This document shows, one piece after another, positions 21-30,994 of a stretch of 64,000 nt of DNA (within the stretch, counting starts at the first letter, position 1; each line of letters starts with the position of its first letter). Made by a program: the position numbers and the translations under genes. The stretch comes from Lachnospiraceae bacterium (GTDB lineage: Bacteria; Bacillota; Clostridia; Lachnospirales; Lachnospiraceae): the NCBI GenBank assembly GCA_045627745.1, contig JAZQOI010000006.1, positions 8,930 to 72,929 of the forward strand, in the 5' to 3' direction. Below the pieces are notes generated by a model, which was not told the DNA's origin, did no database searches, and saw nothing but the letters and a program-made list of their open reading frames with translations.

Positions 21-34
21 ACAAATTTGTGTGT
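21..34. promoter_or_regulatory. perfect 14-bp palindrome ACACAAATTTGTGT just upstream of the iorA -35 box (possible operator/activator site)
   Basis: Read directly: acacaaa|tttgtgt is self-complementary and ends 6 nt before TTGACA at 41-46. No regulator can be named. Confidence 0.25.
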
Positions 35-40
35 AAAATC

Positions 41-68
41 TTGACAAATATCCTTAATTGCATAATAT
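41..68 (+). promoter_or_regulatory. sigmaA-type promoter for iorA (TTGACA, about 16 nt, TAATAT)
   Basis: TTGACA at 41-46 and an AT-rich -10 (cATAATATt) at 61-68 preceded by TG at 59-60. It lies about 45 nt upstream of ATG 110. Confidence 0.4.
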
Positions 69-109
69 TAGAAGATAGTGTGTTTTTATTGCTTTGGAAG
101 GAGATAGTT

Positions 110-1858
110 ATGAGTGAAACAAAGAGCGTAATGATGCTGGGAAACGAAGCTATTGCTCGTGGCGCTTATGAAGCAGGTGTTAAGGTTTCTGCTGCATATC
201 CCGGAACCCCCAGTACTGAGATTAGTGAGAATATTGTTAAATATAAGGATGAATTATATTGCGAGTGGTCCCCAAATGAGAAGGTAGCTATGGAGGTTGC
301 CATAGGTGCTTCACTTGTGGGCTGCCGTTCATTAGTGTCTATGAAGCATGTAGGTGTTAATGTTGCTTCCGACCCGTTATATACTGTTTCTTATATTGGT
401 GTTAATGGAGGTCTTGTTCTTGTGGCGGCCGATGATCCCGGTCTTTACAGCTCTCAAAATGAGCAGGATACAAGAATGATTGCCAGAGCAGCTCATCTTC
501 CCGTACTTGAACCCTCTGATTCACAGGAAGCTAAGGATTTTATTAAGTATGCTTATGAGTTAAGTGAGAAATATGACACACCGGTCATTTTGAGAACAAC
601 TACACGTTTATCTCATTCTCAGGGAATGGTTACTCTTGAGGATAGACAGAATGTGGCTGATAAGCCATACGAGAGAAATGTTGCAAAAAATGTTATGATG
701 CCTGCGATGGCTAAGGGACGTCATCTTGCAGTAGAAGCAAGAGAAATTAAAATGGCAGAGGATTCCTGCGAATTCCCTATTAACAGAGTAGAAATGAATG
801 ATACCGCAATTGGTATTATTACAAGTGGTATTTCTTACCAGTATGTAAAAGAGGCAATTCCTAATGCTTCAGTATTAAAGCTTGGTATTGTTAATCCACT
901 TCCAAGAAAGCTTATTGAAGATTTTGCATCCAAGGTGGATACATTATATATAGTAGAGGAACTTGAACCAATTGTTGAAACTCAGGTAAAGTCATGGGGG
1001 ATTAAGGCAATTGGTAAGGAAATTCTTACTGTTCAGGGCGAGTACAGTGCCAATATGTTAAGAAAGGCAATTCTTAAGGAAGAGGTTTTGATTAAGAATC
1101 CGGCTGAGGTTCCTAATCGTCCTCCTATTCTGTGTCCGGGATGTCCACATAGAAGTGCATTTACTGTTCTTAATAAGCTTAAGATTCATGCTGCAGGTGA
1201 TATTGGTTGCTATACCTTAGGAGCAGTTGCGCCACTGAGTGTTATTGATACTACTGTGTGTATGGGCTCGAGTATATCTACTCTTCATGGTATGGAAAAG
1301 GCCAAAGGTAAGGATTATATTAAGAACTGGGTTGCTGTAATCGGTGATTCCACATTTATGCATACAGGTATAAATTCACTTATTAATATGGTATATAATC
1401 AGGGAACCGGAACTGTAATGATTCTTGATAATTCCACAACAGGAATGACCGGTCATCAGGACCATGCGGCTACCGGAAAGACTCTTCAGGGTGAAGAGGT
1501 TCCTGCAATTAATATTTACGAACTTTGTAAGACTATCGGAGTTAAGAACGTATATGAAATAAACGTATTTGATACGGAAGGTCTTGAAAAGCTGCTTAAA
1601 CAGGAGCTTGCTAAGGATGAGGTTTCAGTTATCATTACAAAGACACCTTGTGTGCTTTTGAATAAGACACCTATTACACATAAGTGCGTTGCAGATCCTG
1701 AAGCTTGTAAGAAATGTGGAATGTGTCTTAAACCGGGATGTCCTGCAGTTACCAAGCAGGAGGATGGTACAATCAAAATTGACGAAACTATGTGCAACGG
1801 TTGCGGATTGTGTAAGAAACAGTGTAAGTTTGGTGCAATCAAGGACGTGGCAATTTAG
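110..1858 (+). CDS. iorA: indolepyruvate:ferredoxin oxidoreductase, alpha subunit
   Basis: ORF 29-1858. ATG 110 follows RBS GGAAGGAG (96-103). TPP-binding region GDSTFMHTG...NSTTGMTGHQ. C-terminal ferredoxin-type Cys clusters CKKCGMCLKPGCP and CNGCGLCKKQC. Followed by iorB. Confidence 0.85.
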   Translation: MSETKSVMMLGNEAIARGAYEAGVKVSAAYPGTPSTEISENIVKYKDELYCEWSPNEKVAMEVAIGASLVGCRSLVSMKHVGVNVASDPLYTVSYIGVNGGLVLVAADDPGLYSSQNEQDTRMIARAAHLPVLEPSDSQEAKDFIKYAYELSEKYDTPVILRTTTRLSHSQGMVTLEDRQNVADKPYERNVAKNVMMPAMAKGRHLAVEAREIKMAEDSCEFPINRVEMNDTAIGIITSGISYQYVKEAIPNASVLKLGIVNPLPRKLIEDFASKVDTLYIVEELEPIVETQVKSWGIKAIGKEILTVQGEYSANMLRKAILKEEVLIKNPAEVPNRPPILCPGCPHRSAFTVLNKLKIHAAGDIGCYTLGAVAPLSVIDTTVCMGSSISTLHGMEKAKGKDYIKNWVAVIGDSTFMHTGINSLINMVYNQGTGTVMILDNSTTGMTGHQDHAATGKTLQGEEVPAINIYELCKTIGVKNVYEINVFDTEGLEKLLKQELAKDEVSVIITKTPCVLLNKTPITHKCVADPEACKKCGMCLKPGCPAVTKQEDGTIKIDETMCNGCGLCKKQCKFGAIKDVAI

Positions 1859-1878
1859 TTGGGGATAAGGAGACTGTT

Positions 1879-2448
1879 ATGGAAACGAAGAATATAATGA
1901 TTGTAGGTGTAGGCGGACAGGGAACTCTGCTTACAAGCCGTATTCTCGGTGGAATTATGCTTCAGGCCGGATACGATGTTAAAATGTCTGAGGTTCATGG
2001 AATGGCTCAGAGAGGTGGCTCTGTTGTTACCTTTGTAAGATATGGAGATAAGGTGTGTGAACCTATCGTTGAAGAAGGTCAGGCTGATGTCCTTATTGCA
2101 TTTGAACAGCTTGAGGCCATGAGGTATGCTCATTTCCTTAAAAAGGATGGGGTATTGATTTTGAATAATCAGAGAATTGATCCTATGCCTGTTGTAATAG
2201 GAGCAGCAAAGTATCCTGAAAATATTGTTGAGAATTTAAGTAATGAATATAAGGTTATTTCTGTAGATGCAATGTCAGAGGCAATTAAGCTTGGAAATTC
2301 CAAGGTATTTAATGTTATTGTTTTGGGTGTCGCTGCAAAGCATATGGATTTTTCCAAGGACGAATGGTTTAAGGTAATTGAGAGTATTGTTAAGCCTAAG
2401 TTTGTGGATATGAATAAGCAGGCATTTGAAATCGGATATAATCTGTAG
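1879..2448 (+). CDS. iorB: indolepyruvate:ferredoxin oxidoreductase, beta subunit
   Basis: 189 aa. N-terminal IMIVGVGGQGTLL motif of the 2-oxoacid:ferredoxin oxidoreductase gamma-like family. RBS AAGGAG. Lies immediately after iorA. Confidence 0.8.
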   Translation: METKNIMIVGVGGQGTLLTSRILGGIMLQAGYDVKMSEVHGMAQRGGSVVTFVRYGDKVCEPIVEEGQADVLIAFEQLEAMRYAHFLKKDGVLILNNQRIDPMPVVIGAAKYPENIVENLSNEYKVISVDAMSEAIKLGNSKVFNVIVLGVAAKHMDFSKDEWFKVIESIVKPKFVDMNKQAFEIGYNL

Positions 2449-2509
2449 TTACTGTTTTAAGACTAAACAGTAATACTTTAGTGTTACTGCTCAGGTAATG
2501 AATAGTAAC
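2448..2509. promoter_or_regulatory. four alternating copies of a 7-nt core (GTTACTG / CAGTAAT / GTTACTG / TAGTAAC), i.e. two GTTACTG-N13-yAGTAAy inverted repeats 35 nt apart
   Basis: Cores at 2448-2454, 2468-2474, 2483-2489 and 2503-2509. As RNA, neighbouring copies can pair in mutually exclusive ways (A:B 10 bp, B:C 7 bp, C:D 7 bp). Sits between the iorB stop and the paaK RBS. Confidence 0.4.
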
Positions 2510-2536
2510 AATTGTTTTGGTAAGGTGGTGGAAACA

Positions 2537-3835
2537 ATGATCTGGAATGAAGCCAGAGAATGCATGAGTCGTGATGAGATGGCTCACATTCAGAGCGTAC
2601 GTTTAGTTAAGCTTGTAGATCGTGTATATCATAATGTAGAGTTTTATCGTAAGAGAATGCAGGAGGCCGGTCTTGAACCCGGAGATATTAAGGGGATAGA
2701 AGATATCAATAAGCTTCCGTATACAACAAAGGCTGACCTTAGAGACAATTATCCCTTTGGGTTATTTGCTGTGCCCCGTAGTGAAATTGTTCGTGTACAT
2801 GCATCCAGTGGAACAACGGGCAAAGCTACAGTAGTTGGATATACAAGACATGATATTGATATATGGGCAGAGTGTGTTGCCAGAGCCTTTACAATGGCCG
2901 GCGTTGGTCAGAATGACGTAATGCAGATTGCCTATGGTTATGGATTGTTTACAGGTGGTCTTGGTGCTCATTATGGTGCTGAGAATCTTGGCGCGACAGT
3001 AGTTCCCATGTCTACCGGTAATACTAAAAAGCTTATTACAATGATGGAGGATTTTGGCGTTACAGCAATTGCCTGTACACCTTCATATCTTATTCATATA
3101 GCTGAGGTTTTGGAGGCTGAAAATAAAATGGATAAGATTAAGCTTCGTACCGCAGTGTGCGGTGCAGAACCATGGACAGAGGAAATGCGTTTGCTTATAG
3201 AAAAAATGCTTAATATTGGTGTTCATGATATTTACGGACTTTCGGAGGTTATGGGACCGGGTGTTGCCTGTGACTGTGATTTCCATAAAGGACTTCATGT
3301 ATTTGACGATCATTTTTATCCTGAGATTATTGATAAGGATACTCTTGAGCCTGTGGGTGACAATGTTCTTGGTGAACTTGTATTTACTACATTAACAAAG
3401 GAAGGTTTGCCGCTTATTAGGTATCGTACTAAGGATCTTACAAGTATTGATCATAGCCCCTGTGAATGTGGAAGAACCACACCAAGAATTCAAAAATTCA
3501 AAGGCCGTTCAGATGATATGCTTGTTATTCGTGGAGTTAATGTGTTCCCTTCACAGGTGGAGGCTGCATTACTTGAGGTAGATGAAACAACACCTAATTA
3601 TCTGATGATTGTTGACAGAGTTGATTATCAGGATACTCTTGAGGTTAAGGTAGAAGTAGAAGAACGATTCTTTGATGATGATATGGTTAGTCTTGAAAAA
3701 ATAACAAAGAAGATTCAGGCTGTATTAAAACAGGCCCTTGGACTTGCCTGCAAGGTAACACTTGTAGAGCCTAATACCCTTGAGAGAAGTGAGGGAAAAT
3801 CAAAAAGAGTTATAGACAAGAGAAATCTTGTTTAA
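2537..3835 (+). CDS. paaK: phenylacetate-CoA ligase family (aryl-acid:CoA ligase)
   Basis: ORF 2498-3835. ATG 2537 (MIWNEAREC...) follows RBS AAGGTGGTGG. AMP-binding motif SSGTTGKATVVGYT, YGLSE, and C-terminal GRSDDMLVIRGVNVFP typical of PaaK-like ligases. Confidence 0.8.
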   Translation: MIWNEARECMSRDEMAHIQSVRLVKLVDRVYHNVEFYRKRMQEAGLEPGDIKGIEDINKLPYTTKADLRDNYPFGLFAVPRSEIVRVHASSGTTGKATVVGYTRHDIDIWAECVARAFTMAGVGQNDVMQIAYGYGLFTGGLGAHYGAENLGATVVPMSTGNTKKLITMMEDFGVTAIACTPSYLIHIAEVLEAENKMDKIKLRTAVCGAEPWTEEMRLLIEKMLNIGVHDIYGLSEVMGPGVACDCDFHKGLHVFDDHFYPEIIDKDTLEPVGDNVLGELVFTTLTKEGLPLIRYRTKDLTSIDHSPCECGRTTPRIQKFKGRSDDMLVIRGVNVFPSQVEAALLEVDETTPNYLMIVDRVDYQDTLEVKVEVEERFFDDDMVSLEKITKKIQAVLKQALGLACKVTLVEPNTLERSEGKSKRVIDKRNLV

Positions 3836-3860
3836 CGCTTCGGGTTAAATGTGGTATAAT
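3832..3860 (+). promoter_or_regulatory. possible internal sigmaA promoter (TTAACG-N17-TATAAT with TGn extension)
   Basis: TTAACG at 3832-3837 and TGgTATAAT at 3852-3860. It overlaps a C(UUCG)G-capped hairpin around the paaK stop (3831-3849). Confidence 0.3.
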
Positions 3861-3905
3861 AGGTATTGAATTAAACAATGTGTCTTTGAAGTTGCATTTT
3901 GCTTC

Positions 3906-3931
3906 GTTACTGGGTAGAAATGAACAGTAAC
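3906..3931. promoter_or_regulatory. inverted repeat GTTACTG-N12-CAGTAAC just upstream of the ACT-gene RBS
   Basis: gttactg at 3906-3912 and cagtaac at 3925-3931, a perfect 7-bp inverted repeat. Same core and nearly the same spacing as the pair at 2448-2509. Confidence 0.4.
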
Positions 3932-3948
3932 AGAATGGAGGTGCTTTT

Positions 3949-4374
3949 ATGGCAGTGAAGCAGGTTACTGTGTTTATTGCAAACAAAGAGGGACGAATCG
4001 AAAAGGTAACACAGGTTCTTAAGGATAATGATATTAATATTACTTCATTAAGCCTTGCTGAATCGGAGGATTTTGGATTGCTTCGTCTTATTGTTTCCGA
4101 TGCTGAACGTGCAAAAAACGTTCTTAAGGAGGCCGGACTTAGTGCTAAGACGACGGATGTCATAGCTGTTCAGATATCTAATGAGCCGGGCTCACTTCAT
4201 GATTTGCTGATAGCGGTTAAGGAATATAATATTGAATATATGTATGTATTGACTGCAGCGGAATCTGCATCTATGGTCATGAAAATCAGAGATGTTGAGG
4301 GTGCTGAGAAGGTTCTTAGAGACAAAGGTTTTGTTATTTTATCTGAACAAGAGGTTAATGAGACGGTGTATTAA
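3949..4374 (+). CDS. ACT-domain (amino-acid-binding) protein
   Basis: 141 aa with two tandem roughly 70-aa ACT-like repeats (VTVFIANKEGRIEKVTQVL... and VIAVQISNEPGSLHDLLIAV...). RBS GGAGGTG. This gene commonly follows iorAB-paaK. Confidence 0.6.
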   Translation: MAVKQVTVFIANKEGRIEKVTQVLKDNDINITSLSLAESEDFGLLRLIVSDAERAKNVLKEAGLSAKTTDVIAVQISNEPGSLHDLLIAVKEYNIEYMYVLTAAESASMVMKIRDVEGAEKVLRDKGFVILSEQEVNETVY

Positions 4375-4392
4375 AACACCGTCTCATTTAGT
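4360..4392 (+). terminator. rho-independent terminator after the ACT gene
   Basis: 9-bp stem GAGACGGTG/CACCGTCTC (4360-4368 / 4377-4385) with an 8-nt loop, followed by a T-rich tail. It overlaps the stop codon. Confidence 0.55.
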
Positions 4393-4405: not shown

Positions 4406-4435
4406 TTGATAATATACTTTAGGTTATGGTATACT
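4406..4435 (+). promoter_or_regulatory. sigmaA-type promoter of the four-gene unknown operon (TTGATA-N18-TATACT, TGn-extended -10)
   Basis: TTGATA at 4406-4411 and TGgTATACT at 4427-4435, about 34 nt upstream of the first possible start at 4469. Confidence 0.45.
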
Positions 4436-4468: not shown

Positions 4469-7400
4469 GTGGTGAGGAACTTGCATGATATTGTAAATAG
4501 ACTTCGTGATGGAGTTTTCGATTATGATAATGGGAAACTCTCTTTTTCTGTTACTAAAATTGAAGAATCATTGCCTGTAGGCGGTACATATGAGGGTTCC
4601 TTTACCATTGAAAGTCGTAATGATAATGTTGTTGTAGGAAAGGTATATACCTCCAGTATGCGCCTTGTATGCATGACTGAAAGCTTTGAGGCCAAGAAGG
4701 TTAATGTTGGATTCCTTTTTGATGCAACAGGACTTGATGCGGGAGATATTGTTAAGGGTGATGTTCAGATAGTTTCCAATATGGGTGAGTATTATATTCC
4801 CTTTGCTTTTTCTATTGTACATGGTATTGTCAGAAGCTCTCTTGGTAATGTTAAAAATTTATTTCATTTTACAAATCAGGCACAAATTAGCTGGGATGAG
4901 GCTGTGGGTCTATTCTATTCAAAGGAGTTTATGCAAGTCTTTGAAGGAAACGACAGAGTGCATCTTGCTAAGTATCGCGGTCTTTCCAATCATTATTTAG
5001 ATGAGCAGAATATGGATACGTTTCTTATATCGGTTAATAAGAAACAGCCTGTTCTTTACAGCGTTGACAAGACAATGCATGAATTTCATGAGGTTTCTGA
5101 AACCCTTAGATGTGAATTGCCTGTCAGAAAGTCAACATGGGGATATGTTAATCTTAAGCTTTCAACAGATTGTGAATTTTTACGTCTTGAAAAGACAGAA
5201 CTTGATTATTCTGACTTTTTAGGAAATGTTCATAAGCTTGTATTTTTTATAGAAGAGGACAAGATGCATGAGGGTAAGAATTTTGGTCGTATTACCCTTA
5301 CCAGCAACCATCAGAAGCTTACGGTTACTATTATTGCCTCTAAGCGTATGAGTAACGCTGCACTTAGATGCGAGAGAAGAGAAATACGTAATCTCTATGG
5401 CCGTCTTATGCGTTGCTATATTGCCTTTAGAACCAAGCATATCAGTGTTAATACTTGGGTAAGGGATTCCTTTAAGATTGTGGAGCGACTTAATGCTCTC
5501 GATGAGAAGAATCCTGAATCCAGACTTTTTCAGGCACAGTTAATGCTTGTTTCTCAGCGCTATAATGAGGCGAAGTGGATTCTTGATCATGTTGAGACAG
5601 AAATGAGGATTCAGAAAACAGATCCGACGTTATATTGCTATTATTTGTATTTAACTACTCTTTATTTAAGGGATGATGCATATATTAATGAAGTTGCTGA
5701 TGAAGTGGCAGCAATTTTTGAAAATAACAACGACAATTACAAAATTCTGTGGGCTTTGCTCTATCTTAATGAGGATTTATGCAATAATCATATAAGAAAA
5801 ATCGAGCTGATTGAGGATCAGTTTTATAAGGGCTGCAGAAGCCCCATTATGTATGTGGAAGCATATCAGTTTTTTGTTAATAATCCTGTGACTCTTAATA
5901 AGCTTGAAGATTTTGAACTACAGGTTCTGTATTGGGCGGTTAAAAACGGAATGATGAACCAGGAGGTATGTAAGCAGATATTATACCTTACAGCCAGAAC
6001 CAAGGTTTTTTCTGATAATTTACTAAGACTTCTTACCGGAATTTACAGAATTACCGAAGATGCAGATGTGGTAAGCTCTATTTGCTCACTGCTTATAAAG
6101 GGTAACAAGACAGATGAGAAGTATTTTGAATGGTATAGCATTGGTGTGAATCTTGAACTTCGTATTACTAAGCTATACGAGTATTATATGTTATCTGTTC
6201 CAAAAGATTATAATGAACTGTTGCCGAAGTCAGTTATTATGTACTTTGGCTTTAGGAATAATATGGATTATAAGCATATTGCATTTTTGTATGCAAATAT
6301 GCTAAGACACAGGTATGATATTTCTAACCTGTGTGAGGATTACGCAGTAGCAATGCATGATTTTGTCATTGAACAGATTGTTTATGAAAGAATAGATGAT
6401 AATCTTGCATATTTGTATAGTGAGCTTCTTAGACCTGATGATATAGAACCGGATATGGTTAATAGATTTATTAAGCTTGTTTTCTCCCACGAGGTCAGAG
6501 TCAATGCTCCTAATATTAAGAATGTCTGCGTTGTTCAGGATGAAATGGAATATGAGGAAATATATGCTGTTGAAGATAACGTAGCTTATCCTGTAATATA
6601 TAGCACCCATTATATGATTTTCTATGAGGATGGTGAAGGAAAGAGAGTTCTTGCAGATCCCTCCCAGTGTCGCAAGCTCATAGATGAGACGATTTATGTA
6701 AATGAGCTTAGGCATTATGTTACTGACAATGAGGGCTTTAATCTGTATTTGTGCAGTGGACGTAAGCACTATATTACAGTGGATTCGGGAAATGTGGATT
6801 CCTGTCGTGAGCTCGTGGAGGCAATGAGAATCAAAGAGGATTTCAAACGTGATGTACGTATGGAATTGCTCAAATACTATTATGATAATAATGAGATTTC
6901 TACTCTGGATCAGTTTTTATTAAGTATAGAACCTAAGGTGCTTGGCGCTAAGGACAGAGCAGATTTGGTTGGGTACCTTGTTATAAGGGGAATGTTTGAA
7001 ACGGCGTACGATATTATTACAATTTATGGAGCTGAGAAGGTTCCGGCTAAGACACTTGTAAGAATATGTACCCACATGATTGGAAAGAGTGAAGATATTG
7101 TTGATGTTATGCTTGTAAAGGTGGCGTATTTCGCATTTATTAATGGCAAGTATGATGGAACAATGCTTAAATATCTTGTGGATAATTTTAATGGTCTGAC
7201 CAAGGAGTTGCGTAATCTGTGGCGTGCGGCAATGCAGTTTGACATTGAATGCTTTGGCCTTATGGAGAAAATTCTTGTTCAGATGCTGTTTACCAAGACA
7301 ACTATTGGTGAAAAGGAAGATTTGTTTGAAGAATATATTCGATGCGGTTCAAATACCAAGGTTGAGCTTGCATATCTTTCTTATTCTGCCTTTGATTATT

Positions 7401-8035
7401 TTGCAAAGGAACGTCTTCTTGATGTTCGGGTATTTGACCACATTGTTAAGAATTACAGGCGGGGTGAAGAACTAAACGATGCCTGTAAGCTGGCATTACT
7501 TAAATATTATGCTGAGGATGAAAAGCGTTATTCTGACAGAATCAGAGAGATGCTTGTTGAATTCCTCAAGGAATTTATTCAGAAAAATATTTATTTTGTA
7601 TTCTTTAATGAATTTATTGATATTATGCCGGAACTTGCAGTATATGATGATAAGACCATTATTGAGTACAGAACCGATCCTAATAGTAAAGTTACTCTTC
7701 ATTACATTATTGAAGGAAATGAAGATGATGATTCCTATCATACGGAAGAAATGAAGAATATGTATGGTGGGGTTTTCTCAAAGGAATTTATTCTCTTCTT
7801 TGGTGAGAATCTTCAGTACTATATCACGGAAGAGAAAAACGGTAAGGAGTCACTTACGTTTAGTGATTCAGTGTCTATATCGGATGCGATTGCTGAAAGC
7901 CGTGAATCCAGATATAACCTGCTTAATGATATGGTCGTTTCGAAGGCCTTGCAGGATGATGAAACATTAATGAAAATCATGGAAGAATATGTCGAGGCAG
8001 AGTGTTTTACTGATAAAGTATTTACTTGCCTGTAA
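4469..8035 (+). CDS. large uncharacterised protein: two N-terminal beta-sandwich-like modules followed by long alpha-helical repeat blocks interrupted by beta-rich modules
   Basis: Uninterrupted 1188-codon ORF. The start is ambiguous (GTG 4469 or GTG 4472; no in-frame ATG nearby). The amino-acid pattern suggests the modules; no family recognised by eye. Confidence 0.7.
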   Translation: MVRNLHDIVNRLRDGVFDYDNGKLSFSVTKIEESLPVGGTYEGSFTIESRNDNVVVGKVYTSSMRLVCMTESFEAKKVNVGFLFDATGLDAGDIVKGDVQIVSNMGEYYIPFAFSIVHGIVRSSLGNVKNLFHFTNQAQISWDEAVGLFYSKEFMQVFEGNDRVHLAKYRGLSNHYLDEQNMDTFLISVNKKQPVLYSVDKTMHEFHEVSETLRCELPVRKSTWGYVNLKLSTDCEFLRLEKTELDYSDFLGNVHKLVFFIEEDKMHEGKNFGRITLTSNHQKLTVTIIASKRMSNAALRCERREIRNLYGRLMRCYIAFRTKHISVNTWVRDSFKIVERLNALDEKNPESRLFQAQLMLVSQRYNEAKWILDHVETEMRIQKTDPTLYCYYLYLTTLYLRDDAYINEVADEVAAIFENNNDNYKILWALLYLNEDLCNNHIRKIELIEDQFYKGCRSPIMYVEAYQFFVNNPVTLNKLEDFELQVLYWAVKNGMMNQEVCKQILYLTARTKVFSDNLLRLLTGIYRITEDADVVSSICSLLIKGNKTDEKYFEWYSIGVNLELRITKLYEYYMLSVPKDYNELLPKSVIMYFGFRNNMDYKHIAFLYANMLRHRYDISNLCEDYAVAMHDFVIEQIVYERIDDNLAYLYSELLRPDDIEPDMVNRFIKLVFSHEVRVNAPNIKNVCVVQDEMEYEEIYAVEDNVAYPVIYSTHYMIFYEDGEGKRVLADPSQCRKLIDETIYVNELRHYVTDNEGFNLYLCSGRKHYITVDSGNVDSCRELVEAMRIKEDFKRDVRMELLKYYYDNNEISTLDQFLLSIEPKVLGAKDRADLVGYLVIRGMFETAYDIITIYGAEKVPAKTLVRICTHMIGKSEDIVDVMLVKVAYFAFINGKYDGTMLKYLVDNFNGLTKELRNLWRAAMQFDIECFGLMEKILVQMLFTKTTIGEKEDLFEEYIRCGSNTKVELAYLSYSAFDYFAKERLLDVRVFDHIVKNYRRGEELNDACKLALLKYYAEDEKRYSDRIREMLVEFLKEFIQKNIYFVFFNEFIDIMPELAVYDDKTIIEYRTDPNSKVTLHYIIEGNEDDDSYHTEEMKNMYGGVFSKEFILFFGENLQYYITEEKNGKESLTFSDSVSISDAIAESRESRYNLLNDMVVSKALQDDETLMKIMEEYVEAECFTDKVFTCL

Positions 8036-8047
8036 TGGGAGATAATC

Positions 8048-9325
8048 ATGGGTAATCAAAGCAGGTATATTGTAGGCTGCGATTTGAATGATATGGTAAC
8101 TCAATTGAGTTATTTTGAATTAAATAAGGATGAGCCTGAGACTTTGATATCTGATGGTGAGAATGAACGACTGGGAATCCCCACAGTGTTATGCAAACGA
8201 AGAAAGGTTAATCAGTGGAGTATAGGTACAGAAGCAATTCGTCTAATAGAAAAGGATGGAGAGGCTGAAGTTAATAAATTAGTTTCACTTGCTCTTTCAG
8301 ATAGTAAGATTTCTATAGATGAAGAGGAATTTACAGGGATTGATTTACTTATTCTGTTTCTGAGAAAGTCACTTAATCTATTATCTGTATATGTTTCCAT
8401 GGACCAGATAGATTCTTTTATATTTACGGTTCCCAAGCTCGATTCTTCAATGCTTTCCGTTCTTGAGAGAGTTTCGGTGGCACTTCCTGTAGGACGGGAT
8501 AAAATTGCTTTCCAAAGCTACAGTGAAAGTGTTTTCTATTATATGCTCCATCAGGAAGAGGAGTTATTTAAAAATGAGGTTGTGGTTCTTGACCATGACG
8601 GTGCTGATATTAATTGCTATTATATGCATCTTAATCATCGAACAAAGCCCATTGTGGGAATGGTTGATGAGTATTTTTTTGATGACTTTGAAAGCCCTGA
8701 CAGCGAAAATGCCACAGAGGAGGAAAAACATTTAGCTGATGAGAAGCTCTTGTCAATGCTGCATGATTTTCTTATGGCCAAAACAGTTCGTGCTGTTTAT
8801 CTGCTGGGAGATGGCTTCGATGGTGAATGGTGTAAGAAGACAGTTAGTTTTCTCTGTATGGGACGAAGAGTATTTCAAGGGAAGAATATGTACTCTAAGG
8901 GTGCCTGCTACTACGGTAAGGACAGAATAGAACCGACCGGGCTTAATGAAACCTATGTATTTTTAGGAAGAGACAAGCTGCAGTTTAACCTTGGAATGTA
9001 TGTTGAACATAATGGGGAAGAGGAGTATATTGCTCTGGCAGATGGTGGAGAGAATTGGTTTGAATCAGAATCAAAGCTACAACTGTTGTTAGCTGACGGG
9101 AACAAAATCAAGCTGATTGTTACGCCTCTTGATGGCAAGGAAATACGTGATATTACAATTAATCTGGATGGACTTAAACAACGTCCTCTTAAAACAACAA
9201 GGCTGGAGCTTAATGTGTCCTTTAAATCGGGCACAAAAGTTTATGCCTGCGTTAAAGACTTGGGATTTGGAGAAATATTCCCTTCTACAGGTCAGTATTG
9301 GGAAAAAGAAGTGGAAATCTTTTGA
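8048..9325 (+). CDS. uncharacterised Hsp70/actin-fold-like protein with degenerate nucleotide-binding loops plus a C-terminal beta-rich domain
   Basis: 425 aa, ATG after RBS GGGAGA. Collinear look-alikes of Hsp70 motifs: VGCDLNDMVTQ (phosphate-1), FIFTVPKLDSS, VVVLDHDGADINCYYM (phosphate-2), AVYLLGDGFDGEW (adenosine), KNMYSKGACYYG. Confidence 0.7.
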   Translation: MGNQSRYIVGCDLNDMVTQLSYFELNKDEPETLISDGENERLGIPTVLCKRRKVNQWSIGTEAIRLIEKDGEAEVNKLVSLALSDSKISIDEEEFTGIDLLILFLRKSLNLLSVYVSMDQIDSFIFTVPKLDSSMLSVLERVSVALPVGRDKIAFQSYSESVFYYMLHQEEELFKNEVVVLDHDGADINCYYMHLNHRTKPIVGMVDEYFFDDFESPDSENATEEEKHLADEKLLSMLHDFLMAKTVRAVYLLGDGFDGEWCKKTVSFLCMGRRVFQGKNMYSKGACYYGKDRIEPTGLNETYVFLGRDKLQFNLGMYVEHNGEEEYIALADGGENWFESESKLQLLLADGNKIKLIVTPLDGKEIRDITINLDGLKQRPLKTTRLELNVSFKSGTKVYACVKDLGFGEIFPSTGQYWEKEVEIF

Positions 9326-9336: not shown

Positions 9337-10176
9337 ATGGCTAATGTTATTTTGTGCCACGGTAAGCTGGCAAAAAAACCTTATAATGTTGTTGGCATTG
9401 GTATTAACGTCTATTCTGCCGAGGAACTCTGTTTTGTAATTGCCCAGAATGCTCATACTTTGGATAGAGATTTTATGGATGAGAATCTGTGTACCTTTCT
9501 TGAAGAAGAGTTAAGCCTAAGAACACTGGCATTAAAGCTTAGGGAAATCATTAACAGACAGGGTGGTTTGGGCGAATTCGTTGTGGCAATTCTTGAGGGA
9601 GTTAATTATTGCGACACTGTAGAAATAAAAAGCATTAAACAAATTCTTGTGGAAAGTGCCGGTCTTAGTCCTGCCAGAAAGCATAAGAGCAGAGCTGACA
9701 ATCTGTTTAAGGCAAGGAAGTACGGTAGGGCGCTGGATGAATATATAGGAACTCTTGATAAGATAGACAAAGAGGCAGAACCTCTTTTGTATGCTGCTGT
9801 GCTTCATAATATGGGAACGACCTATGCAAAGCTGTTGCTGTATAAGAAGGCATCTGAATATTATCTTGAGGCATACCGGTTGAATATGGATGATGAAAGT
9901 CTTGTGCTACATTTAGTCTGCTCTAATTTGTCCATGCCTAAGGAACAATACGAAAAGATGCTTATCCGTTGCGGCTATAAGGATAAGGTAATAGAGGATG
10001 CTAAGGACAGATTAAATCTACAGGGTGGCTTCCTTGATGTTAATAACAGATATGCGAAGGAATTTAATTATCTAAAGGATTTAAAAAAATCCGGCAAAAT
10101 CGGTCAGTATTACCATGCTGTTGATGAGACACTTAATGCATGGAAACAGGAATACAGAGCAAATATGATTTTATAG
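9337..10176 (+). CDS. uncharacterised protein with a C-terminal TPR-like helical region
   Basis: 279 aa, RBS GAGGTAG. The segment ADNLFKARKYGRALDEYIGTL...LHNMGTTYAKLLLYKKASEYYLEAYRL reads like 2-3 TPR units. Confidence 0.6.
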   Translation: MANVILCHGKLAKKPYNVVGIGINVYSAEELCFVIAQNAHTLDRDFMDENLCTFLEEELSLRTLALKLREIINRQGGLGEFVVAILEGVNYCDTVEIKSIKQILVESAGLSPARKHKSRADNLFKARKYGRALDEYIGTLDKIDKEAEPLLYAAVLHNMGTTYAKLLLYKKASEYYLEAYRLNMDDESLVLHLVCSNLSMPKEQYEKMLIRCGYKDKVIEDAKDRLNLQGGFLDVNNRYAKEFNYLKDLKKSGKIGQYYHAVDETLNAWKQEYRANMIL

Positions 10177-10236: not shown

Positions 10237-11460
10237 ATGAGGATTATTGATTATATCAAGAAAAAGCTTGGCTTTGTGGAGGACAGTTTCGAGTCGGAGT
10301 TTGAGGTCAATCTGGAAACCGGTGAAAATGCCGAGAATATTACTGAGGTACTAAAGCATTCGGCAATTCGAAGGGCAGATATTAACGTACTTGATTACAA
10401 GGAACGTGAGATGTATGTCCGGGATAAATGTGATCAGATGAAAAACGCCGCAGAGGAAATAAAGCGTGAAAAGGTTGAATATCAGAAGGTAATTGAACGC
10501 CTTTCTGATATTGATGAGCTTAGCGCGCTTCCCTCTAATAATTTTAGCGGAATAATCCGTTCTGCCAAGAAAATCCTGCAAATAGAACAGGATGAGGAAA
10601 ACTACGTACGTCCTACCTCTAAAATCACGGACTCTCAATATCGTGAAATGGAACGTATGGAAAATGAAATTCCCGGGATAATCAAAAAGATTAAAGACGA
10701 AGAGGATTATCAGATGAAGGTTAAGAGGGATCTTAATCTTCTTGAAGGTGAGAAGGGAGCCCTGGCATACCAGCGCAGAGAGGAAAAGGAAAAAGCTGGG
10801 AATTGCAAGGCATTGGCTTTTGTATTTGTTTTTGTTTCCGTTATGGCTGCACTGCTGTTGGCTTTACTTCATTTTTCGCTTGATTTTGAAGTGGTTTTAG
10901 GATATTACATCGTACTCACTTTTCTATGCATTTCTATGGTAATAATCTGTGTGACCTATAAGAATGCTATTGATTCCCAGGCTAAGACGGAGCGTAAGAT
11001 TAATAGGGCTATAACCCTTCAGAACTCTGTTAAGATTAAATATGTTAATGCTACCAATCTTATAGATTATTATTATTCGAAATACAAAATCAATAACTCC
11101 TACGAGCTTAGCTATATGTGGGAGAAGTATAACGAAGAGAAAAATGCCAGAAATCATTCGGAAGAGATTGCACAAAAGTTAGATGATGCAAGAAAAGAAC
11201 TTGCCAAGAATTTAAGAACCTATAATATTAATGATATTGCACTTTTTGTTTTTCAGCCCTATTTGCTTACTGATGAAATGGCTTTGGCTGAAATACGAAA
11301 GAATTTGATTATTCAGAGGCAAAAGCTGAAAAAGGGAATTGATTTTAATACCTTTAGTCTTGAATCCTCCAAGAGAGAAATAGAGGATCTTGTAAGGGAA
11401 TATCCTAAGTTTAATAAGGAAATACTTGCTATTGTAAGTCAGTATGAAGAAGGTAATTAA
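10237..11460 (+). CDS. uncharacterised coiled-coil protein with a central two-TM hairpin
   Basis: 407 aa, RBS AGGTG. Charged heptad-like N- and C-terminal regions flank ALAFVFVFVSVMAALLLALLHF and VVLGYYIVLTFLCISMVIICV. Confidence 0.6.
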   Translation: MRIIDYIKKKLGFVEDSFESEFEVNLETGENAENITEVLKHSAIRRADINVLDYKEREMYVRDKCDQMKNAAEEIKREKVEYQKVIERLSDIDELSALPSNNFSGIIRSAKKILQIEQDEENYVRPTSKITDSQYREMERMENEIPGIIKKIKDEEDYQMKVKRDLNLLEGEKGALAYQRREEKEKAGNCKALAFVFVFVSVMAALLLALLHFSLDFEVVLGYYIVLTFLCISMVIICVTYKNAIDSQAKTERKINRAITLQNSVKIKYVNATNLIDYYYSKYKINNSYELSYMWEKYNEEKNARNHSEEIAQKLDDARKELAKNLRTYNINDIALFVFQPYLLTDEMALAEIRKNLIIQRQKLKKGIDFNTFSLESSKREIEDLVREYPKFNKEILAIVSQYEEGN

Positions 11461-11511: not shown

Positions 11512-11886
11512 CTATTTTTCAATAAATGATTCGCCGTTTTCCTTAAGTCTTGCTTCAAAATCATCAAGCATTTTGGAAACCTTGGGAGATATTGATACGA
11601 ATTCACAGCCATATTGATAGTGTGTTTTGTCTATAGCTAAGCTGCGTATGATTTTTACGTCTGTAATAATCTGAGGCATATCACGATATAATTCTATATT
11701 AGCAATGAAAATATAACCTACGGGAAGGACTGTTTCGCATATGAAGCCGATTCCCTTGGCTGATATATCGGTTACGTCAATCGAGGATGAAATATCCTTG
11801 AGAGCGTAGGGATTTTCCTGATATAAATCGGACACTGAAAGGTTAAATCCGATAGGAATTCGCTTTTCTTTGCGTTTTTCTTCCAT
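11512..11886 (-). CDS. stand-alone PilZ-domain protein (putative c-di-GMP receptor)
   Basis: ORF 11512-11946. ATG at 11886 follows RBS AGAGGT. RxxxR (RKEKR) and DxSxxG (DISAKG) motifs are at the expected spacing. Confidence 0.7.
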   Translation of the reverse strand: MEEKRKEKRIPIGFNLSVSDLYQENPYALKDISSSIDVTDISAKGIGFICETVLPVGYIFIANIELYRDMPQIITDVKIIRSLAIDKTHYQYGCEFVSISPKVSKMLDDFEARLKENGESFIEK

Positions 11887-12099
11887 TGTAGTTACCTCTG
11901 AAATTAATTTTTGGTTTATTATATAATAAATCATTTTACTTATCAAGAATCATGTTCTTATGGAATCGGTATGTTAAGTGATTTATATCGCAGAGATGCA
12001 AAGGTGAATATGTCGCACCTAAAAGTGCTTAGCGCATCTTGCGGATAGGTATGCTAAGGCGTATATGAATAATGTATATATTTATAAAGGAGAATAAAA

Positions 12100-13530
12100 A
12101 TGAACGACAGATATGTAAGCCCATTATCAGAAAGATACGCAAGTAAGGAGATGCAGTATATCTTCTCACCGGATATGAAGTTTAAAACCTGGAGAAGGTT
12201 ATGGATTGCCCTTGCCGAGACAGAGCGTGAGCTTGGTCTTAATATTACACAGGAGCAGATTGATGAGCTTAAGGCTCATGCCGAAGATATAAATTATGAT
12301 GTTGCCAAGGAAAGAGAGAAGTTAGTCAGACATGATGTAATGAGCCATGTATATGCATACGGGGTTCAGTGTCCTAAGGCAAAGGGTATTATTCATTTAG
12401 GAGCCACCTCCTGCTATGTGGGAGATAATACGGACATTATAGTTATGGCAGAGGCACTTAAGCTAGTCCGTAAGAAGCTTGTTAATGTGATTTTTAAATT
12501 ATCTGAGTTTGCAGACAAATACAAGGCACTTCCGACTCTGGCATTTACTCATTTTCAGCCGGCACAGCCTACTACTGTAGGTAAGCGTGCAACTCTGTGG
12601 ATGAATGAGTTTGTTTTGGATCTTGAAGAGCTTGATTTTGTGCTTGGTTCTCTTAAGCTTCTTGGTTCTAAGGGTACAACAGGTACACAGGCAAGCTTTC
12701 TTGAACTGTTTGACGGCGATCAGGAAACAATTGATAGAATCGATCCAATGATTGCTAAAAAAATGGGCTTTAAGGAGTGCTATCCTGTTTCAGGACAGAC
12801 ATATTCACGTAAGGTTGATACCCGAGTTGTTAATGTTCTTGCTGCAATAGCTGCCAGCGCGCATAAGTTTTCAAATGATATCAGACTTCTTCAGCATTTG
12901 AAGGAGGTTGAGGAACCCTTTGAGAAAACTCAGATTGGTTCATCAGCTATGGCATACAAGCGTAATCCTATGCGTAGCGAGAGAATAGCATCTCTTAGCA
13001 GATATATTATTATTGATTCTCTTAATCCTGCAATTACCAGTGCTACTCAGTGGTTTGAGAGAACTCTTGACGATTCTGCCAACAAGCGTCTTTCTGTTCC
13101 GGAGGGATTCCTTGCTCTTGATGGTGTTCTCGATTTATGTCTTAACGTAGTAGATGGTCTTGTGGTAAATGAGAAGGTTATTGAGAAGAGATTAAGAAGT
13201 GAATTACCGTTTATGGCAACTGAAAATATAATGATGGATGCTGTTAAGGCCGGCGGAGACCGTCAGGAATTACATGAGAAGATAAGAACTCTTTCAATGG
13301 AAGCCGGAAATAATGTTAAGAAGCTTGGTCTTGATAACAATCTTCTTGAGCTTATTGCTGCAGACCCATCCTTTAACATGACACTTGAAGAGCTTGAAGA
13401 AACAATGAATCCAAGTAAGTTTATTGGACGAGCAAAGGAACAGGTTGATGCGTATCTTTCAAAGGTGATTTTCCCCATTGTTGAGGATAATAGGGAATGT
13501 CTTGGTATTCAGGCTGAGATTAATGTTTAG
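12100..13530 (+). CDS. purB: adenylosuccinate lyase
   Basis: 476 aa. N-terminus YVSPLSERYASKEMQYIFS and the fumarate-lyase signature GSSAMAYKRNP. RBS AAGGAG. Confidence 0.9.
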   Translation: MNDRYVSPLSERYASKEMQYIFSPDMKFKTWRRLWIALAETERELGLNITQEQIDELKAHAEDINYDVAKEREKLVRHDVMSHVYAYGVQCPKAKGIIHLGATSCYVGDNTDIIVMAEALKLVRKKLVNVIFKLSEFADKYKALPTLAFTHFQPAQPTTVGKRATLWMNEFVLDLEELDFVLGSLKLLGSKGTTGTQASFLELFDGDQETIDRIDPMIAKKMGFKECYPVSGQTYSRKVDTRVVNVLAAIAASAHKFSNDIRLLQHLKEVEEPFEKTQIGSSAMAYKRNPMRSERIASLSRYIIIDSLNPAITSATQWFERTLDDSANKRLSVPEGFLALDGVLDLCLNVVDGLVVNEKVIEKRLRSELPFMATENIMMDAVKAGGDRQELHEKIRTLSMEAGNNVKKLGLDNNLLELIAADPSFNMTLEELEETMNPSKFIGRAKEQVDAYLSKVIFPIVEDNRECLGIQAEINV

Positions 13531-13565
13531 TATTGTTTGATGTTTTAGGAATTTGAGGTGCTTAA

Positions 13566-14702
13566 TTGGTTCTGAAAGCTTTGAATGATATTTGGATTGC
13601 AATTAGGGCTTTTGATGAACAGGCAATGACCTTTGCTTCAATAGCGGTCCTTATATACATTTTTTTCATAATAATTAAATATATTTATAGAAAACTGCGA
13701 CATAAAAAATGCGACTCAATATGGCAGATGGTTATATCTATCTGCCTATTTGGTATTTTATGTATATATTTATCATATTTAATATCCTTGACCCTGTCGG
13801 GAAGAGAGGCAGGAAGTCGTTCAAACAAAATCAATCTTGAATTGTTTGGAACCTTTTCCAACGATGGCTCGATTTCAAAACATGCAGCAGAGAATGTGTT
13901 ACTGTTTATTCCTTTTGGAATACTTGTACCACTTATGGGACATTTTTTTAAACGCTGGTGGAACCTGACACTGCTTGCTTTTATAAGCAGTATGTTAATT
14001 GAACTTACACAGTTAATTACTGCCAGAGGATATTTTGAGGTTGATGATATAGTGCTTAATACCTTGGGGGCACTATTAGGATATATGGCATTCTCGGTAT
14101 GTTATCACAGTTATATTGATATAAAAAAGAAAACCGAAATACCACTTAACAAGCATGAAATACAGATTAACCGGGTTACGTTATTTGTTATTCAGCTTCT
14201 TCCTGTAATTCTTGTGACTATGATGATTTTCAGATTCTCCGGGGATAATGCTGAGGAATCAAGTGCTCTTAGTTTATTTGTTACAGAAAAGCTTCTGATA
14301 GTTAAGAATAAAATACTGGGTACAGGTCTTACTGCTGAGAAAATATATAATCTTGCTGTTAAGCGTGAAGGCATGGTGCGTACCCTTGCTCATATGATTG
14401 AATATGCATTATTGACTGTTGTGACATTTGTGTTTATATATTGCAGGCGAATCAGTAATTATCTTTCATATATCACTACATTTGTATTTGTGATTGTCAT
14501 TGCATGCTGTGATGAGGTTCATCAGATTAATTCGCCCGGTAGAAGTGCCAGTATAGCAGATGTCGGTGTTGATTCTCTTGCAGCAATAATTGTACTTGCC
14601 TTTATTTTACTTCTATCAGCATTTTTGCGATATTATCGTGTTAGAAGTAAGGTTAAGAATCTAAAAAAAGAATTACTCGATATAAAGAATATGAAGAATT
14701 AA
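13566..14702 (+). CDS. membrane protein with two VanZ-like domains
   Basis: 378 aa. N-half ENVLLFIPFG...ELTQLITARGYFEVDDIVLNTLGALLGY. C-half AHMIEYALLT...CDEVHQINSPGRSASIADVGVDSLAA. The start is uncertain (TTG 13566 or ATG 13626). Confidence 0.6.
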   Translation: MVLKALNDIWIAIRAFDEQAMTFASIAVLIYIFFIIIKYIYRKLRHKKCDSIWQMVISICLFGILCIYLSYLISLTLSGREAGSRSNKINLELFGTFSNDGSISKHAAENVLLFIPFGILVPLMGHFFKRWWNLTLLAFISSMLIELTQLITARGYFEVDDIVLNTLGALLGYMAFSVCYHSYIDIKKKTEIPLNKHEIQINRVTLFVIQLLPVILVTMMIFRFSGDNAEESSALSLFVTEKLLIVKNKILGTGLTAEKIYNLAVKREGMVRTLAHMIEYALLTVVTFVFIYCRRISNYLSYITTFVFVIVIACCDEVHQINSPGRSASIADVGVDSLAAIIVLAFILLLSAFLRYYRVRSKVKNLKKELLDIKNMKN

Positions 14703-14750
14703 AGCTGCTTCTTTTACATATATGAGAGGGAGCAACAAAATGGAGGGAAT

Positions 14751-16568
14751 ATGTCAACTGTTGACCAGAGTAAAATCAGAAATTTTTGTATAATTGCCCA
14801 TATAGATCACGGTAAATCAACATTAGCCGACAGAATTATTGAAAGCACAGGACTGTTGACCAGCCGTGAAATGCAGGCTCAGGTTCTCGATAATATGGAG
14901 CTTGAGAGAGAGCGTGGAATTACCATTAAGTCACAGGCTGTCAGAACTGTATATAAGGCTAAGGATGGAGAGGAATACATCCTTAATCTTATTGATACAC
15001 CGGGACATGTTGACTTTAATTATGAGGTTTCAAGAAGCCTTGCTGCCTGTGATGGCGCAATACTTGTGGTTGATGCTGCCCAGGGAATAGAGGCACAGAC
15101 TCTTGCAAATGTGTATCTGGCACTTGATCATGATCTTGATGTATTTCCTGTAATCAATAAGATTGATTTGCCAAGTGCCGATCCCGAAAGAGTAGTAAAC
15201 GAAATCGAGGATGTTATAGGAATAGAGGCAATGGATGCCCCAAGAATATCAGCTAAAATCGGACTGGGAATCGATGAGGTTCTAGAGCAGATTGTTAAGA
15301 AGATTCCTGCTCCTAAGGGAGATAAGAACAAGCCCCTTAAGGCTTTGATTTTTGATTCGCTATACGATTCCTATAAGGGTGCAATTGTATTCTGCAGAAT
15401 GATGGATGGTGTTGTTAAAAAGGGAACACCTATTAAGATGATGGCAACAGGTGCTGTTGCAGAGGTGGTTGAGGTAGGATATTTTGGCGCAGGTCAGTTT
15501 ATTCCCTGTGATGAGCTGGAAGCAGGCATGGTTGGATATATTACTGCAAGTATTAAGAATGTTCGTGATACTGCTGTGGGTGATACAGTCACTAATGCCG
15601 AGAATCCATGTGAGGAAGCACTTCCGGGTTATAAGAAGGTTCAGTCAATGGTATATTGCGGACTATATCCTGCTGATGGTGCAAAATATCCTGATCTTAG
15701 GGATGCTCTTGAAAAGCTTCAGCTTAATGATGCTTCTCTTAACTATGAGCCGGAAACCTCTATTGCTCTTGGTTTTGGTTTCCGTTGTGGATTTCTGGGA
15801 TTGCTTCACCTAGAGGTTATTCAGGAACGCTTGGAAAGAGAGTATAATCTTGATTTGGTTACTACTGCGCCGGGTGTTATATACAAGGTATATAAGACTG
15901 ATGGTGAGGTAATAGAGCTTACTAATCCTTCTAATCTTCCTGATCCGTCGGAGATTGATTATATGGAGGAGCCTATTGTATCTGCTGAAATAATGGTTAC
16001 CAAGGATTATGTGGGAGCCATTATGGAGCTGTGTCAGGAGAGAAGAGGTAAGTATCTCAGTATGGAATATATGGAGGAGTCAAGAGCTCTTCTTAAATAC
16101 GAGCTTCCGCTAAATGAGATTATCTATGACTTTTTTGATGCATTAAAGTCACGTTCAAGAGGCTATGCATCCTTTGATTATGAAATGAAGGGCTATGAGA
16201 AATCAGATCTTGTTAAGCTGGATATTCTTATTAACAAGGAAGAGGTGGATGCGCTTAGTTTCATAGTTCATGCAGAAAGTGCATATGAGCGTGGAAGAAA
16301 AATGTGTGAGCGACTTAAGGAGGAAATTCCAAGACATTTGTTTGAGGTTCCTATTCAGGCTGCAATTGGCAGTAAAATCATTGCCAGAGAAACGGTTAAG
16401 GCAGTAAGAAAGGATGTATTAGCCAAGTGTTATGGTGGTGATATAAGCCGTAAGAAGAAGCTTCTTGAAAAGCAGAAGGAAGGAAAGAAGCGTATGCGCC
16501 AGATTGGTAATGTAGAGATACCGCAGAAGGCATTTATGAGTGTGTTGAAGCTGGATGACGAAGCATAG
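14751..16568 (+). CDS. lepA: translation elongation factor 4 (LepA)
   Basis: 605 aa. [33 protein letters not shown] and a characteristic LepA C-terminus. Confidence 0.95.
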
Positions 16569-16667
16569 AGCTTAATATCAATTAGTACTGCTTAGACTAT
16601 TGGCGACCCGTGTCTTTTTTGTAAATACCCCGGGGCGTATTTAAAAGATATTTAGGAGGAATGTGCT

Positions 16668-17905: not shown

Positions 17906-18006
17906 TATTATTAGTGCTTATAAATACAATATCAATATAAATGTGTGTTTTTTGTACGAAAGTTTATCACATTTTCTGTTTCGGTAAGATGAAAAGAGGT
18001 TGCGAT

Positions 18007-23233: not shown

Positions 23234-23253
23234 TAGTGGGAAGAGGGTTTTAT

Positions 23254-30988: not shown

Positions 30989-30994
30989 AATACG

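Follow-up and report, generated by a model that had tools for sequence, protein, structure and literature searches.

A divergent Hsp70 homologue predicted to lack subdomain IIB and the helical lid, encoded in a conserved four-gene operon of Lachnospiraceae

The stretch of DNA analysed here, hereafter the window, comprises 64,000 nucleotides (nt) of a Lachnospiraceae bacterium (contig JAZQOI010000006.1 of assembly GCA_045627745.1), and our subject is gene B (8048..9325, + strand), the second gene of a four-gene operon A-B-C-D within it, which encodes a 425-amino-acid (aa) protein of the DUF5716 family. Pfam assignment, an AlphaFold2 (AF2) model, Foldseek and HHalign together identify this protein as an Hsp70 homologue with the ASKHA (actin/Hsp70/sugar kinase) fold, as judged from model and sequence. 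Its predicted architecture consists of subdomains IA, IB and IIA of the nucleotide-binding domain (NBD), an interdomain linker and the beta-sandwich half of the substrate-binding domain (SBD-beta), without subdomain IIB and without the helical lid (SBD-alpha). On balance, the evidence tips towards B being a pseudo-Hsp70 that acts independently of ATP as a scaffold or clamp subunit, forming a fixed part of a membrane-attached complex.

The AF2 model computed from an alignment of 36 family members (A1) reached a mean pLDDT (predicted local distance difference test) of 80.2 and a pTM (predicted template modelling score) of 0.77, and was used in place of a single-sequence model, for which pLDDT was only 31. 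Foldseek comparison of the alignment-based model with the PDB returned 357 matches at E <= 1e-3. The top 50 were all two-domain Hsp70s comprising NBD and SBD (probability 1.00, E 1e-15 to 8e-10), including DnaK in several states and from Geobacillus, Mycoplasma and Mycobacterium, BiP, Hsc70, mortalin, the Hsp110 protein Sse1, and Ssz1. As the alignments to these proteins extend over 507-568 columns for a query of 425 residues, both Hsp70 domains are matched. The foldseek probability and the order of elements in the model both correspond to the ASKHA fold, that is, two RNase-H-like lobes with a duplicated beta-beta-beta-alpha-beta-alpha-beta-alpha core. The best template modelling scores (TM-scores) were obtained with docked DnaK (7kru, 0.52-0.53, root mean square deviation (rmsd) ~9; 4b9q, 0.45-0.47), and undocked ADP-state structures superposed with an rmsd of ~20 or more; in appearance the model is closest to DnaK in its docked, ATP-like state.

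Profile comparison leads to the same assignment. HHalign aligned a profile of 149 representative family clusters to one built from nine Hsp70 sequences (DnaK, HscA, HscC and other Hsp70s from E. coli and plasmid records) with a probability of 94.1% and E 1.2e-7, over residues 5-423 of B and 1-513 of DnaK, continuing through the linker into DnaK 389-513. An earlier note made from the sequence alone had laid five stretches of B onto canonical Hsp70 motifs by eye, and the peptides it quoted are all present in the protein (residues 7-22, 123-136, 178-193, 249-261, 279-290, 310-321, 353-366 and 386-406). The five pairings proved to be in the right register. Four of them fall within the HHalign alignment (B/DnaK: VGCDLND/IGIDLGT, IFTVP/VITVP, VVVLDHDGAD/IAVYDLGGGT and YSKGAC/AVAIGAA), while the adenosine motif (AVYLLGDGF/DVILVGGQT) emerged as the top local alignment from a separate comparison of the middle regions, a result that alone is not significant (E 0.15). 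The TPS and VG..A motifs of subdomain IB also match Hsp70. Single-sequence similarity is faint: BLASTP of B against DnaK gave E 0.2, the Pfam HSP70 family (PF00012) matched neither the whole protein nor its sub-fragments even at E up to 10, and no Hsp70 was retrieved from the PDB sequences by phmmer or hmmsearch with B or profile A1 as query. The family profile against E. coli DnaK alone gave only a weak alignment of residues ~370-408 to DnaK ~456-494 (E 0.17 and 0.036), and this segment, covering later strands of SBD-beta, was the best in each sequence comparison. The beta-rich C-terminus is thus the part of B closest in sequence to DnaK, and the earlier remark that the last ~130 residues do not resemble an Hsp70 substrate-binding domain was mistaken, as both the HHalign match to DnaK 389-513 and the two-domain span of the Foldseek matches identify them as SBD-beta. 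The same note had also overlooked the absence of IIB, the absence of the lid and the strictly conserved operon.

The NBD homologue occupies residues 1-300 (8048..8947; HHalign from residue 5 to 300) and, from the order of elements in the model, contains IA, IB and IIA only. Its alignment with DnaK can be followed through a series of anchors (B/DnaK): the phosphate-1 Asp (D12/D8), the proline of "TPS" in IB (P45/P37), the "TVP" strand (T127-V-P/T142-V-P), the catalytic Glu (E160/E171), the phosphate-2 Asp (D182/D194), the adenosine-motif Gly (G254/G341), the Gly of "GAA" (G285/G374), the linker Leu (L306/L391), the Gly of "QGER"/"LDGK" (G363/G443), the start of "NLDG" (372/458) and the D-x-x-x-G near the end (D404..G408/D490..G494). 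Intervals between anchors are within a few residues of those in DnaK with two exceptions, namely D12 to T127, which is 19 residues shorter, and the phosphate-2 Asp to the adenosine Gly, which measures 72 aa in B and 147 aa in DnaK. The earlier statement that motif spacing is roughly right therefore agrees with DnaK except across this last interval, where 75 residues are missing. Within it the model shows a single helix (residues 224-242), and this, combined with the 72-aa spacing, indicates that subdomain IIB is absent. Across the family the same interval has a median of 71 aa (range 57-114). In place of IIB (DnaK ~228-310), spacing and model place an acidic loop followed by one helix (aa 212-243, 8681..8776). 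The loop itself (aa 212-223, 8681-8716; A1 columns 230-290) is a hot spot of acidic low-complexity insertions in homologues, such as the ~60 extra residues found in P0032.

A hydrophobic linker, Y303-V-F-L-G307 (8954..8968), aligns by HHalign with V389-L-L-L-D393 of DnaK, and its F305, L306 and G307 are invariant or nearly so in A1. It is followed by the SBD-beta homologue (aa 308-425, 8969..9322; DnaK 394-513 by HHalign), for which the model predicts eight main strands at residues 313-321, 324-331, 342-348, 353-360, 367-372, 384-392, 397-407 and 417-423. The protein ends at residue 425, equivalent to DnaK ~513, which is where the helical lid of an Hsp70 would start, and the tail after the conserved W418 has a median length of 8 residues in unfused family members. 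B thus carries the linker and the eight-stranded sandwich of an Hsp70 and no SBD-alpha lid.

All nucleotide-contacting loops of B deviate from the Hsp70 consensus, and the earlier observation that the Gly and Thr residues holding the ATP phosphates are replaced, by D-L-N-D-M and D-H-D-G-A-D, is borne out. The phosphate-1 loop (8075..8095) reads G10-C-D12-L-N14-D15-M16 against G6-I-D8-L-G10-T11-T12 in DnaK. G10 is kept in 141 of the 149 clusters and an Asp or Glu stands at position 12 in 137, while position 14 is variable (G 44, N 31, S 22), and the D-x-G-[ST]-[ST] pattern occurs in one cluster. In the phosphate-2 loop (8591..8614), D182-H-D-G-A-D-I-N189 takes the place of D194-L-G-G-G-T-F-D201; position 182 is Asp or Glu in 115/149 clusters, GGG or G-x-G-[ST] occurs in none, and the position of DnaK D201 is Lys or Arg in 64. 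The counterpart of the adenosine motif (8801..8818, local HHalign alignment), L252-L-G254-D-G256-F257 versus L339-V-G341-G342-Q-T, retains G254 in every cluster, G256 in 89 and F257 in 137, and G285 is likewise present in 149/149. E160 (8525..8527), the counterpart of the catalytic Glu171 as judged from the alignment of QSYSES with INEPTA, is Glu in 132 clusters and Asp in 9. At position 77, the counterpart of the catalytic K70, family members have N, D, H, G, K or R, with the register there lying near the low-confidence part of IB. Motif loss across the 149 clusters indicates that loop degeneration, as read from the sequences, is ancestral to the whole DUF5716 family and maintained, rather than decay of the copy in the window. 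The earlier proposal of a non-catalytic or very divergent Hsp70 is therefore upheld by comparison of orthologues.

Gene B has an ATG start, with a GGGAG ribosome-binding site (8037..8041) 6 nt before it, 12 nt past the stop codon of the upstream gene. Residues 124-424 match Pfam DUF5716_C (PF18980; E 7.8e-97, 324.2 bits against a cut-off of 34.7) over profile positions 2-296 of 296; the first 123 residues have no Pfam or NCBIfam match. A word-indexed search found 268 close relatives, labelled "hypothetical" or "DUF5716 family protein" and derived from Lachnospiraceae metagenome-assembled genomes, and an exhaustive profile search (E <= 1e-3) extended the family to 1623 clusters at 50% identity. 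With one genome scanned per species, relatives were found in at least 543 species, nearly all of them Lachnospiraceae, including Kineothrix alysoides, Acetatifactor and the mouse isolates 28-4 and 10-1. Alignment A1 has 60 invariant columns, and strongly conserved blocks (RRVFQG-N-[LM]YSKGAC, A[LIV]AD[AG]G[EV]NW, TPLDGK, DLGFGE) are spread over the entire length of the protein. This conservation points to strong purifying selection across hundreds of Lachnospiraceae species and excludes neutral decay. One family member, P0042 (470 aa, from a 1538-bp contig; A1 columns ~360-500), matches P0035 over its first ~290 residues and has an SBD-beta half from a far more divergent DUF5716 lineage; its sequence would fit either a chimeric assembly or a recombinant.

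The order A-B-C-D is itself conserved. The gaps between the four genes are 12, 11 and 60 nt, and tblastn searches with the four proteins against 84 loci of different species showed the same order wherever the locus is long enough. The genes were counted in 82 (A), 84 (B), 84 (C) and 78 (D) of these loci, the shortfalls being due to contig ends, which in the two loci not counted for A fall within or ahead of that gene, and their order is kept down to 31-36% identity while the flanks vary by lineage. The operon start is marked by a terminator-like 13-bp hairpin (4357..4388, + strand) that closes an upstream ACT-domain gene, followed, ahead of gene A, by a promoter-like site (4406..4435, + strand; TTGATA-18-TATACT plus an extended TG), which is a pattern match only (10/12 in a consensus scan). 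A search of sequencing runs retrieved DNA metagenomes only (gut and horse samples) and no transcript evidence for the operon. Clustering of flanking genes revealed housekeeping neighbours only (an amino-acid ABC transporter, purC, purB and purF), along with a frequent PilZ gene. Defence-system and phage readings of the operon were dropped, as PADLOC and PHROGs gave nothing meaningful: no family matched B, and A, C and D had only weak matches (E 4e-4 to 0.03), to families without an assigned function. The operon looks like a core housekeeping module in Lachnospiraceae, rather than a mobile element or one of defence.

Of the partner genes, gene A (4469..8035, + strand) encodes a 1188-aa protein composed of the Pfam families DUF5717_N (PF18984, E 3.7e-289) and DUF5717 (PF18983, E 9.2e-103), without transmembrane segments or a signal peptide and without relatives in the PDB by profile. 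Its N-terminal ~290 residues (aa 1-294, 4469-5350) look beta-rich by eye and may be Ig-like or PapD-like. The rest of A looks like a helical repeat, with a sub-threshold match to the TPR-like HrpB1_HrpK family at aa 337-426 (E 0.002). Gene D (10237..11460, + strand) encodes a 407-aa protein for which hydropathy predicts a hairpin of two transmembrane segments (aa ~190-242) between coiled-coil-like N- and C-terminal regions; it is the only one of the four proteins with transmembrane segments, and no Pfam or PDB relative was found for it. NCBIfam had no match to A, B or C, and Pfam searches at E up to 10 with fragments of all four proteins added nothing further. No J-domain HPD motif is present in any of the four, and no Pfam match to DnaJ or GrpE was obtained for A, C or D, although such partners could be encoded elsewhere in the genome. 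In the literature library searched, queries on the DUF names and Pfam accessions of DUF5716 and DUF5717 returned nothing relevant and no mention of a function; DUF5716_C, DUF5717_N and DUF5717 are families of unknown function, and DUF5716 has so far been catalogued only as a DUF.

Gene C (9337..10176, + strand) encodes a 279-aa tetratricopeptide repeat (TPR) protein, recognised from weak Pfam TPR_12/TPR_2 matches and from its family profile (A2) against the PDB. Its three TPR repeats (aa ~114-224) lie between a conserved N-terminal domain of ~100 aa and a tail of helices; A and C have no repeats in common by HHalign (E 0.07). Over residues ~114-224, profile A2 finds TPR domains in the PDB. Designed consensus TPRs and IFT88 outrank the natural matches that follow, which are mostly Hsp70/Hsp90-binding TPRs: CHIP, TOM70, FKBP52, Tah1, RPAP3, STI1 and SPAG1 (E 9e-5, for CHIP, to 2e-2). 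The nearly invariant K117 of C falls on CHIP K30 and its invariant N158 on N65, while an invariant Asp (D121) stands at the position of CHIP N34 and the position of K95 is not basic. With K30, N34, N65 and K95 as the carboxylate-clamp residues of CHIP, C does not have a full clamp of the CHIP or Hop type, although it probably has a conserved peptide-binding groove. In six of the 149 clusters (P0149, P0152, P0155, P0163, P0193 and P0249; 685-765 aa) B continues at its C-terminal end into a homologue of C (BLASTP E 1.6e-14 to 4.5e-38), and such recurrent fusion is classic evidence for physical association of the two proteins.

Under the pseudo-Hsp70 reading, B would be derived from a DnaK/HscC-type chaperone, having retained IA, IB, IIA, the hydrophobic linker, the beta-sandwich SBD and the interface between the domains. 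Lost from it would be IIB, the lid, the phosphate loops with their Gly and Thr residues and, it appears, the catalytic lysine. The IIB lobe of an Hsp70 holds adenine and ribose and is the part gripped by exchange factors, and these combined losses suggest that B has given up the ATP-driven clamp cycle. It might then rest in one fixed, docked-like conformation and, within a cytoplasmic complex, either clamp a peptide or act as a structural adaptor, bound to C and assembled with A, and with D as the membrane tether. Several observations weigh against this. The basis for an A-B-C-D complex consists only of operon conservation and gene fusion, the argument for a docked state rests on TM-scores of a predicted model, and residues 28-73 of that model, part of subdomain IB, have a pLDDT below 50, the only region to do so. 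The phosphate-1 loop keeps D/E-x-G in 42/149 clusters, the acidic active-centre residues D12, E160 and D182 are retained and the adenosine-motif Gly254 is invariant; on these sequence features B may still bind some metal or nucleotide.

Conservation of the same three acidic residues (D8, E171 and D194 in DnaK) and of G254, along with that of linker and SBD-beta as though allostery mattered, would be expected if B, though highly divergent, were still an active ATPase or chaperone of the ASKHA kind, using a remodelled pocket to drive a substrate-clamping cycle for which A, C or D were clients or unconventional co-chaperones. We regard such an enzyme as unlikely, given that no cluster has the Gly-rich phosphate-2 loop, the Thr pair is missing from the phosphate-1 loop, the counterpart of the catalytic Lys appears not to be conserved and the D201 position is often basic, the entire adenine-binding lobe is missing, and the operon proteins have neither an HPD motif nor a match to GrpE or another known co-chaperone family. 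B could instead be no Hsp70 derivative but a cytoskeletal or polymerising member of the ASKHA superfamily, actin-like in the manner of MreB, FtsA or ParM. In favour of this are the fold common to actin and Hsp70 NBDs and the membrane-anchored coiled-coil protein in the operon, as found in some cytoskeletal systems. This is very improbable, however, with Hsp70s making up all 50 top structural matches, SBD included, a profile alignment that runs on through the Hsp70-specific linker and SBD-beta, and IB motifs (TPS, VG..A) that fit Hsp70. Least credible of all is that B is a decaying or functionless remnant, its loops degenerating under relaxed selection. That catalytic motifs and two domains have been lost might suggest as much, but intact, full-length copies persist in no fewer than 543 species and in 1623 clusters, with conserved blocks along its whole length (such as RRVFQG-N-YSKGAC and ADGGENW), a fixed operon order and fusion to a neighbour, and this conservation, as read from sequence, effectively refutes decay.

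A further alternative concerns the role of C, which may hold a peptide of B in its groove as a bacterial counterpart of the eukaryotic pairing of Hsp70 with TPR co-chaperones such as CHIP and Hop. The dominance of Hsp70/Hsp90-binding TPRs among its natural PDB matches, the alignment of K117 and N158 with clamp residues of CHIP, and the B-C fusions all favour this pairing. It nonetheless appears doubtful, since only two of the four clamp positions fit, B has no EEVD-like tail, and designed consensus TPRs outscore CHIP, so that the resemblance may reflect no more than a generic three-repeat TPR. Clamping of an EEVD-like tail of B by C was rejected in its own right: the tails of B are variable, contribute to the final strand and, in the fusions, lie mid-chain and are not free. 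A more ambitious proposal, which we put forward only tentatively and think improbable as a whole, is that A-D form a new membrane-anchored machine of Lachnospiraceae with a docked-locked Hsp70 relic at its core, working without ATP, a CHIP-like TPR partner, and SBD-beta clamping a segment of A or of the membrane tether. If true, this would be a bacterial version of an Hsp70-TPR pairing thought of as eukaryotic, and B would be the first of the Hsp70 derivatives demonstrated to function with neither a IIB lobe nor a nucleotide.

Compared with canonical Hsp70s (PF00012), B resembles DnaK in fold, in IA, IB and IIA, in linker and eight-stranded SBD-beta, and in motif order and spacing. It differs in having no IIB, lid or Gly/Thr loops and apparently no K70 counterpart, in its length (425 aa versus ~640 aa) and in having no J-domain or GrpE partner in its operon. 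By analogy, the nearest functional precedent for the proposed role may be Ssz1, which is among the structural matches (7x3k_B, 6sr6_C, 5mb9_A). Ssz1 is an atypical Hsp70 of the yeast ribosome-associated complex that has a truncated SBD, is not driven by ATP hydrolysis and acts as a stable structural partner. Unlike B, it keeps all four NBD subdomains, binds ATP, is eukaryotic and ribosome-associated, and is partnered by the J-protein zuotin, whereas the partners of B are a TPR protein, a DUF5717 protein and a membrane protein. Hsp110/Sse1, HscC, YegD and STCH are likewise divergent Hsp70s, with cycles that are altered or domain sets that are reduced; the structural matches include Sse1, and HscC sequences are part of the profile that detects B. 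To our knowledge all of these keep intact nucleotide-binding loops and the IIB lobe, and we know of none encoded in an operon with DUF5717, TPR and two-transmembrane proteins; HscC, in addition, has its own J-protein gene next door (seen in loci L090 and L092). C, for its part, aligns with the whole CHIP TPR domain and conserves the Lys of TPR1 and the Asn of TPR2, but differs from CHIP in lacking a U-box, in its incomplete clamp (Asp for Asn, no TPR3 Lys) and in its extra N-terminal domain.

Hsp70s are among the best understood molecular machines, and almost every known Hsp70, including Hsp110, Ssz1 and HscC, keeps a four-lobed ATP-binding domain. From DUF5716 one would learn how the Hsp70 scaffold can be used in the absence of a nucleotide cycle, in a protein that is kept, despite deletion of the adenine lobe and lid and erasure of the phosphate loops, in a dominant bacterial family of gut and rumen. 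What is new here is the recognition of DUF5716 as an Hsp70 without IIB or lid, the conserved loss of its motifs, the invariant operon and the fusion to a TPR protein, and not a new kind of system. This gives a first structural handle on DUF5716, DUF5717_N, DUF5717 and two unnamed partner proteins, all encoded in an operon that is among only a few in Lachnospiraceae to be both family-specific and strictly conserved. Two plasmid loci, L094 and L095 (Haliscomenobacter and Vibrio), encode Hsp70-family proteins of ~830 aa directly upstream of AAA ATPase genes, a non-canonical Hsp70 setting of another kind that has no relation to the A-D operon.

The window as a whole has ~38% GC, a strongly positive GC skew and almost every gene on the + strand. 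A single-domain PilZ protein (11512-11946, - strand; 144 aa, Pfam E 3.6e-7) converges on gene D, and a PilZ-homologous open reading frame (ORF) lies downstream of D in 47 of 78 loci of other species, which hints at a link to cyclic di-GMP (c-di-GMP). A few kb downstream of the PilZ gene lies the gene for a GGDEF-PAS-EAL protein of c-di-GMP turnover (17941-21405, + strand; 1154 aa). Between them lie purB, a gene for a VanZ-like protein, then lepA and a gene of the hemN-like radical SAM type (12100-17837, + strand). In many Firmicutes lepA-hemN is followed by hrcA-grpE-dnaK-dnaJ; here it is followed by the GGDEF-EAL gene, and no canonical dnaK was found among the 32 window ORFs scanned against Pfam (ORFs up to 40285). 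Upstream of the operon, genes for indolepyruvate:ferredoxin oxidoreductase alpha and beta, a PaaK-type phenylacetate-CoA ligase and an ACT-pair protein (29-4374, + strand) form an aromatic 2-oxoacid catabolic module, which is parted from the operon by the strong hairpin at 4357-4388; PaaK and the ACT protein are also found upstream in 13 related loci. Further downstream, comM-like, dprA, topA and codY genes (21713-27715) precede a flagellar cluster of fliF, fliG, fliH, fliI, fliK-like and flgE-like genes (29372-40285, + strand), from whose presence the organism is probably motile.

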